From assembly GCA_019057795.1 (NCBI GenBank), contig JAHLWS010000038.1:1-64000 (forward strand): 64,000 nucleotides of DNA, in the 5' to 3' direction. Within the stretch, counting starts at the first letter, position 1; every line of letters begins with the position of its first letter. The notes beneath the pieces were generated by a model that saw only the letters and a program-made list of their open reading frames with translations, did no database searches and was not told where the DNA came from. Shown in pieces: positions 20,749-23,198 of the stretch. The stretch is from Promethearchaeota archaeon (GTDB taxonomy: Archaea > Asgardarchaeota > Lokiarchaeia > Sigyniarchaeales > SOKP01). A program made the position numbers and the translations under genes.

Positions 20749-21027
20749 TCATTTCTTTATCTTTTTTTTAAAAATATCCGGAATTAAACCATTAATCCCA
20801 AGACGGTTCAAAATAGTATCACTAATATCGATTTTAACTTTCATATCTTGCATAGCTTTTAATGTTTCTCCTAACATTTTGGAAAAACTTTCGTTCATTT
20901 CTTTAATAGTATCTGAAGTCAATTTAAGAGATTCTCGAATAGCAAGATTTGTCTCGTGTAACTCTGAAGTCATTTTTTCCATACTAACCCTCATTTCTGA
21001 AATCTCTTTTTTTATTCCCATTATCAA
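20749..21027 (-). CDS. small coiled-coil hypothetical protein
   Basis: Heptad-like helical sequence. Confidence 0.55.
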   Translation of the reverse strand: MIMGIKKEISEMRVSMEKMTSELHETNLAIRESLKLTSDTIKEMNESFSKMLGETLKAMQDMKVKIDISDTILNRLGINGLIPDIFKKKIKK

Positions 21028-21196
21028 TCCAAATCTTAACTTGTTTTATTTTTTTAGTAATTTTATAAAGAATGAAGTACTTAAAGTTTTTATTTAAATA
21101 GACAATAAATCTCGTATAATTATTAATTATAACAAATACTCTTTTAAGATTGCTTAATTATATTCAAAATAACTAATAAAATAAAACTTAATCAAA

Positions 21197-21334
21197 ATGT
21201 CTGAATGGAAATACAAAATTAAAAAACCCGTAGCCGAAGAAGCATTTTGTACTGGCTGAGGCATCATTGACGGAATCATTTCGTGTATATTTAATATAAA
21301 AAAAAAACGCAAAGAAAAAAAAAGTAAAAAATAA
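21197..21334 (+). CDS. micro-ORF 1 with in-frame TGA (candidate selenopeptide, CTGU)
   Basis: MSEWKYKIKKPVAEEAFCTG[TGA 21257-59]GIIDGIISCIFNIKKKRKEKKSKK-TAA; 20 aa if TGA is a stop, 45 aa if read through. Confidence 0.5.
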
Positions 21335-21338
21335 ACAA

Positions 21339-21401
21339 AATCTCGAGGAGTAAAGCAAAAACGTTAGGTTTTATTCCTTAGTTCCGCAAGAACTTGAGAT
21401 T
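21339..21401 (+). ncRNA. three-way-junction RNA element, copy 1
   Basis: P1 AATCTC/GAGATT, P2 GGAGTAAAGC/GTTTTATTCC, P3 AGTTC-CGCAA-GAACT. Confidence 0.7.
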
Positions 21402-21555
21402 AACTCTTACCTTTTTACTTAATATCGATCTTTTTATTATTATAAAAAATCACATAATTGCCCAGTAACTTTATTTTTTATAAACCTCACCCTTAATACT
21501 CCTGATTTTTATAAACTTAACAATAAATTTAATAATTTTATAGTGAGAAAAACAC

Positions 21556-21729
21556 ATGTCAGAAGAAGATGACTTTGATTTTGGATTTGATTTCGGATTT
21601 GATTTTGGATTTGATAACAATTGCTACGAAACTAGTTGATCGTTACTTACTATGTGGTACTTAAGAGCTTTAAAAACACGAAAAACTAAAGAAAAAATGG
21701 AAAAAAACATAAATAATAAAAATCTCTAA
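21556..21729 (+). CDS. micro-ORF 2 with in-frame TGA (candidate selenopeptide)
   Basis: MSEEDDFDFGFDFGFDFGFDNNCYETS[TGA 21637-39]SLLTMWYLRALKTRKTKEKMEKNINNKNL-TAA; 27 aa if TGA is a stop, 57 aa if read through. Confidence 0.5.
21574..21615 (+). repeat. 12-bp tandem repeat encoding (FDFG)3FD
   Basis: TTTGATTTYGGA x3.5, with a synonymous change in the middle unit. Confidence 0.9.
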
Positions 21730-21786
21730 GATTAAGTCGTTAAATGATTGGATTTAATCAATAAGTTCTATGCAAGAACTTGAGAT
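21722..21786 (+). ncRNA. three-way-junction RNA element, copy 2
   Basis: P1 ATCTC/GAGAT, P2 GATTAAGTC/GATTTAATC, P3 AAGTTC-TATGCAA-GAACTT; shares GCAAGAACTTGAGAT exactly with copy 1. Confidence 0.7.
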
Positions 21787-21833
21787 AGAATTTCTTTTTA
21801 CTTTTTTATTTGAAAAACAAACAGAGAAAAACG

Positions 21834-23198
21834 TTAATAGGGTTTTTTTGACCCTTCTCCAATCTTTCTGTAAATAAAACCTTTTTCTTCAACCAATTTC
21901 TTTTCAAATATGTTCCTTCCATCTATAATAATCGGCGTTCTTACTCTCTTCTTTAAATCAGCAAGATCGATATTGTAATATTCTCTGTGATTTGTAGTGA
22001 AAAGCAATACATCAGCATCGGTTACTGCTTTGTTGAAATCTTTGGTTAATTCAGTAAGATTATAATCGCGTGATTTTACATGGGGGTCGTGAGCAATGTA
22101 AACGATATTATGAGAATGATATCTACTTTTTAGAGCTCTAATGATATTTTCGGTCGGGGTATTTCGCGTGTCATCGGTGTTCGCTTTATACGAGACCCCT
22201 AAAAGGGTTATCTTAATATTGTCTACTAACCTATGGGCGTCTCTGAATACATTTTCCATTAACTCGACCATATGATACGGCATATAATCGTTCAAATTTC
22301 TTGAGTTAGAAATTATCTTCATTTTAGATTCGTTAATTTTTTCAGTATATTTATTAAATCCGTACAATAGAAGCCAAGGATCTTTTGTCAGGCAATGTCC
22401 TCCTACGCCTGAACCGGGGGAATGCATCATTCTGTCGTGGCGTTGATTTATTAATTCTATAATTTCGAATATATTTCGATTAAAATCTTCGCTTAATAAC
22501 GCCATTTCGTTTGCAAATGCAATATTTACGTCTCGGTATGCGTTCTCTATGCATTTAGTTAACTCTGCCGTAAGAGTGTCTGTTATCTGAAGTTCTTTTT
22601 TAACGACCTTCCCGTACAAATACATAGCTTTATCGTTTGCCTCTTTACAACCGCCACCAATTACCCTAGGAAAATTTATGATATACTCCAATAACTTACC
22701 GGGCATTACGCGCTCAAACGAGAAAACAAGATAGAAATCCTTACCCCGCTTTAAACCACTTCCTTCTTCTAAAATAGTTTGTACAACATTATCTGTCGTT
22801 CCAGGTGCTACTGTAGATTCAAGTATGACTGTAACACCCTTTTTTATATGTTTTGAAATCTGTTGAGAAACTTCCTTTAATGATTCATACCTTGGGACTC
22901 TCTGGTCGTCTACAGGCGTTTGTACATCAATTAAAATATAATCTGCAACATCAACATCATCATAATTATCAGTAACCTTAAACTTTCCATTTTTTACCAC
23001 CCTTTCAATTAATGCATCTAAGCCAGGCTCATCCCCTTCAAAAGGATTTTTACCCTTATTAAGCCAATCAATTTTCCAACTTGATCTTTGAGACCTTCGT
23101 TGAATACCCGTAACATAGAAATCGTCTACATCAGCTAACAGAGTAGCCATGGGAATACCAACGTATCCCATACCAACAACAACGATATTAGTAGGCAT
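21834..23198 (-). CDS. nucleotide-sugar dehydrogenase (UDP-ManNAc/UDP-GlcNAc dehydrogenase family)
   Basis: VVGMGYVG, ESTVAPG, ENAYRDVNIAFANE, GVGGHCL, YKANTDDTRN. Confidence 0.92.
   Translation of the reverse strand: MPTNIVVVGMGYVGIPMATLLADVDDFYVTGIQRRSQRSSWKIDWLNKGKNPFEGDEPGLDALIERVVKNGKFKVTDNYDDVDVADYILIDVQTPVDDQRVPRYESLKEVSQQISKHIKKGVTVILESTVAPGTTDNVVQTILEEGSGLKRGKDFYLVFSFERVMPGKLLEYIINFPRVIGGGCKEANDKAMYLYGKVVKKELQITDTLTAELTKCIENAYRDVNIAFANEMALLSEDFNRNIFEIIELINQRHDRMMHSPGSGVGGHCLTKDPWLLLYGFNKYTEKINESKMKIISNSRNLNDYMPYHMVELMENVFRDAHRLVDNIKITLLGVSYKANTDDTRNTPTENIIRALKSRYHSHNIVYIAHDPHVKSRDYNLTELTKDFNKAVTDADVLLFTTNHREYYNIDLADLKKRVRTPIIIDGRNIFEKKLVEEKGFIYRKIGEGSKKPY

Follow-up and report, generated by a model that had tools for sequence, protein, structure and literature searches.

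A 64,000-nucleotide stretch of contig JAHLWS010000038.1 from a Promethearchaeota archaeon (hereafter the window) carries two copies of a three-way-junction RNA element, each directly preceded by a small open reading frame (ORF) with a single in-frame TGA. The element is very probably a recoding element of the selenocysteine insertion sequence (SECIS) type, related to the lokiSECIS of Lokiarchaeota and serving two new archaeal selenoprotein families, here termed A and B. This interpretation draws on the covariation of the element, its association with UGA-containing ORFs, an apical-loop signature and a topology shared with the canonical SECIS elements of the same genome, and its loss or weakening where the UGA has been replaced by UGU. 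Judged from these sequence data, a kink-turn-less SECIS variant of the Lokiarchaeal signal is the most likely identity. Neither family is among the published archaeal selenoprotein families, and the element is not described in any paper found; published SECIS models exclude it by construction.

Structure of the element and the genes that precede it

Both copies lie on the + strand, at 21340-21400 (copy 1) and 21722-21786 (copy 2), and have in common the 15-mer GCAAGAACTTGAGAT, which occurs exactly twice in the window and exactly twice in the 4.95-Mb genome from which it comes (G000). Helix P1 (AUCUC/GAGAU) closes each copy, P2 consists of 9-10 bp (extendable to 10-12 bp) beneath an apical loop of 11 nt (copy 1) or 12 nt (copy 2), and P3 is AGUUC/GAACU in both. 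RNAfold returned the three-way junction as the minimum-free-energy and the centroid structure of each + strand copy, with energies of -19.6 kcal/mol (z -4.4) for copy 1 and -17.0 kcal/mol (z -3.5) for copy 2 that 0 of 200 shuffles reached in either case. An earlier note on this DNA had described two copies with an ATCTC/GAGAT closing helix, a shared 15-mer, a paired P2 and a P3 of AGTTC/GAACT, and sequence and folding agree with that description. Its argument that G-U pairs favour the plus strand also holds, since the - strand of both copies folds less well (-13.9 kcal/mol for copy 1 and -11.7 kcal/mol for copy 2). The alternative, extended P1 that it proposed is peculiar to copy 1 of this genome: across 74 homologues a mean of 1.51 of its 3 pairings can form, compared with 1.63 of 3 for shuffled pairings. 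No Rfam 15 family matched anywhere in the 64-kb window at gathering thresholds, the families including SECIS_1-5, hammerhead and tRNA. A covariance model built from 22 element copies (R1) found only copy 1 and copy 2 in this genome; a third match, on contig C30 (E 0.09), lies within a long ORF and was judged to be a chance match. The parts of the unit are as follows, with window positions, strand, feature and basis.

21120..21150, +, conserved promoter-like A/T-rich block 5' of ORF A, with TATA-like ATTATAAC and then TCTTTTAAGA (10-genome alignment; putative role)
21197..21334, +, ORF A, 45 codons and TAA, candidate selenoprotein family A with C-x-x-U (CTGU) (translation, profile, codon periodicity)
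21257..21259, +, in-frame TGA, codon 21 of ORF A, presumably read as selenocysteine (invariant in homologues)
21340..21400, +, copy 1 of the element (R1 79 bits, E 1.5e-14)
21340-44/21396-400, +, P1 of copy 1 (fold and alignment)
21347-56/21368-77, extendable to 21345/21379, +, P2 of copy 1 (fold and alignment)
21357-67, +, apical loop of copy 1, AAAAACGUUAG (fold and alignment)
21380-84/21390-94, +, P3 of copy 1, loop CGCAA, with J31 at 21395 (fold and alignment)
21412..21416, +, T5 run 3' of copy 1, likely an archaeal oligo-T terminator (sequence; putative role)
21470..21500, +, promoter-like block 5' of ORF B (TTTATTTTTTATAAA..CACCCTTAATA), the best-conserved intergenic block (10-genome alignment; putative role)
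21556..21729, +, ORF B, 57 codons and TAA, candidate selenoprotein family B with C-x4-U (CYETSU) (translation, profile, codon periodicity)
21637..21639, +, in-frame TGA, codon 28 of ORF B, presumably read as selenocysteine (invariant in 24 distinct homologues; TGT in four genomes)
21722..21786, +, copy 2 of the element (R1 81.7 bits, E 3.2e-15)
21722-26/21782-86, +, P1 of copy 2 (fold and alignment)
21727-29, +, J12 of copy 2, the UAA stop codon of ORF B (sequence)
21730-38/21751-59, +, P2 of copy 2 (fold and alignment)
21739-50, +, apical loop of copy 2, GUUAAAUGAUUG (fold and alignment)
21760-63, +, J23 of copy 2 (fold and alignment)
21764-68/21776-80, +, P3 of copy 2, loop UAUGCAA, with J31 at 21781 (fold and alignment)
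21795..21808, +, T5 and T6 runs 3' of copy 2, likely a terminator (sequence; putative role)

Oligo-T termination is known for archaeal RNA polymerase. The unit runs from a promoter-like box through ORF A and the element to a second promoter-like box, ORF B and the second element, and its whole 730 nt align in relatives at 64-89% identity with both TGAs invariant. In the 10-genome alignment of the locus, no conserved structure other than the element was found in or around the two genes. The earlier note had not recorded the UGA-containing ORF before each copy, though the checks it suggested did point there.

The predicted product of ORF A is MSEWKYKIKKPVAEEAFCTGUGIIDGIISCIFNIKKKRKEKKSKK, and its TAA lies 5 nt upstream of P1 of copy 1; that of ORF B is MSEEDDFDFGFDFGFDFGFDNNCYETSUSLLTMWYLRALKTRKTKEKMEKNINNKNL, and its TAA forms the 5' junction strand of copy 2. 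When the UGA-ORF association was examined as the earlier note had suggested, 73 of 74 elements were found to be preceded by an ORF of the A or B type containing an in-frame UGA, the remaining one being masked by N. The A-type consensus is MSEWKNK...C[TSA]GU[GSA][IL][IV]D[GS].I..., after which comes a basic tail, and the B-type consensus is M.EE.E..D..FDDDCY.TSU[SG][LM][IL].MWY.RA.KL.K... The UGA never varies among 37 distinct A and 24 distinct B sequences, and its distance to the downstream P1 is 70-98 nt in A and 82-92 nt in B. The position of the stop codon among homologues ranges from about 20 nt upstream of P1 to inside P2; many ORFs terminate in ...KNLKD*, their stop codon being part of the P2 strand, and parts of P1 and P2 often fall within the coding end. 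Downstream of the UGA, variability in both families is lowest at codon position 2 and highest at position 3. Invariant residues follow the UGA in both families (Asp+4 in A; Trp, Tyr and Arg in B, with Ala+10 nearly invariant), and the codons for Asp, Tyr and Ala vary at their third position. Such coding-type periodicity after the UGA indicates that ORFs A and B are translated through it.

A family A profile (A3) was run on 301 genomes of the phylum, 68 of them in the window's family. Family A was present in 57 of these 68 and in 0 of 233 elsewhere, and all 58 matches contain one TGA; the 11 family genomes without A are likewise without any R1 match. In the same sample the family B profile (A4) matched 27 of the 68 family genomes, and several genera have A with no detectable B. 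Pfam and NCBIfam gave no match for A, B or the Cys form of B, and in a collection of 5.8 billion proteins only the Cys form of B is present, labelled 'hypothetical protein'. AlphaFold2, given the A alignment, predicts one long helix over residues 19-44 with the C-x-x-U at its N-terminus, with block-mean pLDDT (predicted local distance difference test) values of 91-93 over residues 21-40.

Certain family A members in G106 and G148 (loci L053 and L052) have C-x4-U (FCTTSGU, FCMTSGU) in place of C-x2-U, and in G128, from another genus, the motif is C-x7-U, so that Cys-Sec spacing in this family is not fixed. In the window, ORF B has an expanded FDFG repeat at 21571-21600 (FDFGFDFGFDFGFD), all relatives having FDFGFD; exactly 24 nt of this segment are missing from contigs of two sediment metagenomes, which points to a repeat-length polymorphism in the acidic N-terminus of ORF B.

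Distribution and covariation of the element family

Across 151 genomes of the order, R1 detected 1-2 copies in 105 of the 131 genomes of the window's family, spanning 10 genera, and none in the 19 genomes of three sister families. Copies in family genomes are arranged in tandem about 360 nt apart. In G102, a complete single-contig genome, there are five: an A-B pair with an extra B about 1 kb away (L073, G102:C1:188878-191947) and a second A-B pair about 1.9 Mb distant (G102:C1:2131809-2132248), which indicates that the A-B unit can duplicate.

Covariation was assessed on an alignment of 75 R1 matches. All 9 pairs of P2 change on both sides while 97.6% of cells remain paired; the observed values were reached by 0 of 500 shuffles, and the signal collapses when the partner strand is slid by one column. 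P1 is paired in 98.4% of cells and almost invariant in sequence, with variation confined to its outermost pair. Because P3 is partly misaligned in the 75-match alignment, it was parsed in each sequence separately (74 elements). The hairpin forms in 74 of 74 with 41 distinct stems, for example AGUUC/GAACU, AAGCU/AGCUU, GAAUUC/GAAUUC and GCGUUUU/AAAACGC, and its loop is CGCAA in 33 of the 74, most of the others containing GCA or GUG. The junction strands hold 1-3 nt, mostly A, between P1 and P2, 0-4 nt between P2 and P3, and 0-2 nt between P3 and P1. In the apical loop of the new elements, AAA, U and the final G are invariant, and the A preceding the final G is more than 90% conserved.

The earlier note had proposed a functional cis-RNA family that it could not name, and had recommended both an Rfam comparison and a covariance-model search of relatives. 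The former gave 0 matches in the window and the latter the further copies described above. With its presence in 105 of 131 family genomes and strong covariation in P2 and P3, the proposal stands, and the family can now be named, with the reservation attached to the whole interpretation, as SECIS-type; a lack of further copies or of covariation, which the note had listed as grounds for abandoning the idea, did not occur. That the two copies are a chance repeat or a functionless remnant of duplication, an idea prompted by there being only two of them in this genome, is extremely improbable: the element is conserved with compensatory changes across at least 10 genera, and the covariation already refutes such an origin.

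Replacement of the UGA by a cysteine codon in family B

A survey of family B over the complete family sample of 135 genomes (profile A4) yielded 66 copies in 64 genomes; the Sec position is TGA in 62 of these copies and TGT (Cys) in 4. The TGT forms comprise those of G064, G076 and G098, which belong to one clade (CYYTSCSLINMWH), and an independent one in G079. In the three genomes of the clade, the element after B is reduced to scraps (a P3-like AAGTTCTAT, or just GTGAGAT) with no R1 match there, and the A-linked element about 250 nt upstream is intact at 59-64 bits. In G079 the element is still present but scores lowest of all (37 bits): P1 contains a mismatch (AUCUA), and the basal pairs of P2 are broken. 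Every cross-checked TGA-form B has an R1 match within about 15 nt downstream; the R1 list used for this comparison lacked a second match for G060, and G376 and G377 lay outside the R1 sample. In sequence terms this is the pattern expected of a SECIS, an element that would be maintained only while the UGA is present, and it appears in only two independent events.

These substitutions also bear on the possibility that what the element stimulates is ordinary UGA read-through, with a near-cognate tRNA for Trp, Cys or Arg. In other systems, read-through can be enhanced by RNA structures located downstream, and the kink-turn thought necessary for SECIS-binding proteins is missing here, both of which would suit such a role. 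The UGA is, however, 70-98 nt away, far beyond the range of a few nucleotides over which known stimulators act, and it sits within a redox-type C-x2-U or C-x4-U motif where only Cys codons take its place, as is typical of Sec/Cys exchange. The organism moreover has the full Sec trait, and the element shares its loop and topology with the SECIS elements of that organism, as described below. Read-through stimulation is accordingly rated as most unlikely.

Canonical lokiSECIS elements of the same genome

The genome encodes SepSecS, a pair of selD genes that each contain one TGA and four VhuD/FlpD genes that each contain two, and canonical AUGA...GA elements lie 3' of VhuD and selD as well as of a Prx-like gene and a number of short UGA-containing ORFs. 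SepSecS, selD and UGA-bearing VhuD with canonical SECIS elements together mark it as a selenocysteine user. The bacterial SelB winged-helix domain is absent from the genome, as expected for an archaeon. SepSecS occurs in 145 of the 151 genomes of the order, so that a phylogenetic profile against the Sec trait is uninformative.

The published lokiSECIS consists of AUGA, a 9-bp stem, an 11-nt loop (AAAAA....AG) and GA (PMC4989117); this element (Mariotti et al. 2016, PMC4989117) corresponds to the Asgard type I eSECIS-like element of Huang, Xiao & Zhang 2024 (PMC11227280). Nine aligned canonical cores of the present genome have an invariant AUGA and an 11-nt loop with AAA at positions 3-5 and AG at positions 10-11. 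Twelve canonical elements were also folded with their flanks (G000 contigs C5, C15, C22, C24, C42, C63, C65 and C87; loci L008-L010, L012, L109, L110, L112 and L114), and most form three-way junctions: a variable lower helix P1 closes the structure, P2 rises from an internal loop containing AUGA and GA, and a side hairpin, often with a CGCAA, GCAA or GCGA loop, lies between the 3' GA and the return strand of P1. The main text of the 2016 lokiSECIS paper makes no mention of this 3' side hairpin (PMC4989117).

The new element resembles these structures closely. Like lokiSECIS, it lies directly 3' of a Sec-encoding (UGA) gene in a Sec-using organism, has an upper helix of about 9 bp (nine covarying pairs in the new element) and carries an 11-nt apical loop with an A-rich 5' side, an AG end and the same invariant positions. 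The loop of copy 1, AAAAACGUUAG, differs from a canonical loop, AAAAACGCUAG, by 1 nt, and in copy 2, whose loop has 12 nt, AAA and UAG are nevertheless positioned as in canonical loops. A lower closing helix and a small 3' hairpin with a GCAA-type loop are further features that the new element has in common with the lokiSECIS of this genome. In place of the lokiSECIS internal loop, the new element has a tight three-way junction with 1-3 unpaired nt; its closing helix is fixed as AUCUC/GAGAU, whereas that of canonical lokiSECIS is variable; and, in another departure from lokiSECIS, it frequently reaches into the coding end of the gene. The element therefore looks, in sequence and predicted fold, like a lokiSECIS minus the quartet-bearing internal loop and with a closing helix that is now sequence-fixed.

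This resemblance is relevant to two other explanations. The first takes the element as a generic 3'-end structure, a transcript stabiliser or termination aid, with the UGA decoded via some other signal. Its location at the 3' end of the message with T runs after it and the missing canonical core are in line with such a role, which is nevertheless considered unlikely on several grounds. No other conserved structure exists in or around both genes, the apical-loop invariants coincide with those of the canonical SECIS of the same genome, and the element has been lost or weakened exactly where UGA has become UGU, though gene and 3' end persist; a stabiliser, besides, needs neither invariant loop nucleotides nor a fixed 9-bp/11-nt geometry. 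The second explanation is a binding site or regulatory RNA (for localisation, as a small-RNA precursor or as a riboswitch-like sensor) that travels with A and B. The near-invariant AUCUC/GAGAU suggests sequence-specific recognition, and the canonical core is missing for this explanation as well. All of the foregoing arguments apply to it too, P1 and P2 parts often lie inside the coding end of the ORF, and the 1-2 copies per genome all stand behind A or B ORFs, giving no sign of a broader regulon, so that this role is judged very unlikely.

Comparison with known SECIS classes and selenoproteins

As the earlier note had reported, the element has no canonical AUGA/GA SECIS core, and no GA is conserved on its junction strands. 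The published model for such elements allows an upper stem of 7-15 bp. The 2024 Asgard search model requires GA_[G/A]A (PMC11227280), and the new element fails it by definition. A kink-turn reading, which calls for tandem sheared G.A/A.G pairs beside a 3-nt bulge, was considered by seeking GA/GA in other registers as well, among them that of the GAGAU strand of P1, and was rejected: no such register is conserved, the junction strands have no conserved GA, and P1 is Watson-Crick throughout. Without a GA/GA quartet, the element has no kink-turn.

Eukaryotic SECIS elements (Rfam SECIS_1), which have a kink-turn and are bound by SBP2, are like the new element in being 3'-located stem-loops with unpaired apical adenines about one helical turn above a structural discontinuity. 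The new element differs from them in having no GA/GA quartet and no Rfam match, and in possessing an extra side helix. The euryarchaeal SECIS of the Methanococcus/Methanopyrus type is defined by a GAA_A bulge and three G-C pairs (PMC9622424, PMC11881835). It shares with the new element the location in an archaeal 3' untranslated region, and a few homologues carry GAA at the 5' junction strand. A euryarchaeal GAA_A reading was likewise rejected: GAA occurs in few species only, the strand being mostly AAA, AAG, AUA or UAA. The new element also lacks the run of three S-S pairs, its upper helix being A/U-rich and much longer.

In reviews up to May 2026, archaeal selenoproteins comprise 11 families (PMC13188914), 7 of them in Asgard archaea (PMC11227280), all found by homology. 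The redox motifs of families A (C-x-x-U) and B (C-x4-U) resemble those of thioredoxin-fold selenoproteins, but at 45-57 aa the proteins are far too small for a thioredoxin fold.

Evaluation of the SECIS interpretation and proposed mechanism

Several observations weigh against a SECIS function. The element has neither the AUGA 5' of the helix nor the GA/AA 3' of it that define lokiSECIS, and in most homologues the junction is too tight to accommodate an AUGA/GA quartet. A covariance model of the nine canonical cores of this genome (R2) found neither copy in the window at E<=10; on copy 1 it gave only a local 8.1-bit match to the apical hairpin, and its best match in the window, at 20858-20896(-) is not significant (E 0.11). 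Covariation is almost absent from P1, so that only its complementarity argues for this helix. The Sec-to-Cys replacements amount to only two independent events, in one of which the element is still present. A tRNASec was not identified in the assembly: aragorn reported none, and Rfam RF01852 gave only sub-threshold matches of 73-74 nt. As for RNA data, one run contributes a single contig, 21770-21900, which is uninformative on ORFs A and B.

On the SECIS interpretation, which the evidence as a whole favours, each copy would act as the SECIS for whichever small gene terminates next to or within it. Transcripts of ORF A or B would present one UGA 70-98 nt upstream of the element, and, while the ribosome is at this codon, the folded junction at the 3' terminus of the transcript would recruit the archaeal Sec machinery. 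Sec-tRNASec and its elongation factor would be recruited directly or via an adaptor, and the UGA would be read as Sec and not as a stop. The element probably descends from the Lokiarchaeal eukaryote-like SECIS, from which it would have retained the upper helix of about 9 bp, the 11-nt AAA...AG loop, the 3' side hairpin of the (C)GCAA type and the closing helix. The AUGA/GA quartet would have been replaced by the tight junction, with its 1-3 unpaired A-rich nt, together with the invariant AUCUC/GAGAU. Recognition could then involve the apical loop and perhaps also the GNRA-like loop of P3 and the invariant P1, with the tight junction supplying the bend that a kink-turn makes in canonical elements. 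Since there is no kink-turn, a kink-turn binder of the L7Ae type cannot be invoked; no SBP2 homologue was found in Lokiarchaeota (PMC4989117). Direction of Sec insertion by the element, the identity of its binding factor and the geometric equivalence of junction and kink are inferred from these sequence patterns.

It is fairly likely that one family of Promethearchaeota uses a second, quartet-less SECIS class beside the canonical one, in which the junction and the invariant closing helix take the place of the kink. If so, the archaeal Sec machinery would read the apical AAA...AG loop and the side hairpin and not a kink-turn, the dependence of eukaryotes on a kink-turn and SBP2 would be a dispensable or later-fixed feature, and two families of selenopeptides of about 50 residues would be added to the archaeal selenoproteome. 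The GA_[G/A]A quartet is a requirement of all published Asgard and eukaryotic SECIS models and underlies the search tools. An element conserved without it, yet with a retained apical loop, would amount to a natural deletion experiment, bearing on which part of a SECIS is read by the archaeal machinery, which has no known binding protein, and on the origin of SBP2 and kink-turn recognition. The two families would also show that homology-based catalogues, with their 7 Asgard and 11 archaeal families, miss very small selenoproteins.

Additional small UGA-containing ORFs

A weak R1 match of 19 bits on contig C63 (7549-7604, - strand; locus L115, G000:C63:7400-9600) has a 7-bp stem and the loop AAAAAUGUUA. 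It resembles a SECIS apical hairpin, and about 90 nt upstream of it is the end of a 43-aa ORF containing one UGA; the likeness to the element is probably due to chance. Small ORFs also precede canonical lokiSECIS elements in this genome. One of them (L111:2330-2524, + strand; G000:C26:53929-54123) encodes 65 aa with a hydrophobic N-terminal segment and one UGA (..PPDDNGGGULCLAVGY..), and a perfect canonical lokiSECIS begins 4 nt past its stop, which makes it a further candidate small selenoprotein outside the published lists. Two putative ORFs likewise lie 5' of a canonical lokiSECIS: a zinc-ribbon-like one of 69 aa (CPFC...CQNC) with 4 U (L112:177-383, - strand; G000:C63:23756-23962), and one of 120 aa with ..GCUU.. 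and a third U (L113:2135-2494, + strand; G000:C78:176434-176793).

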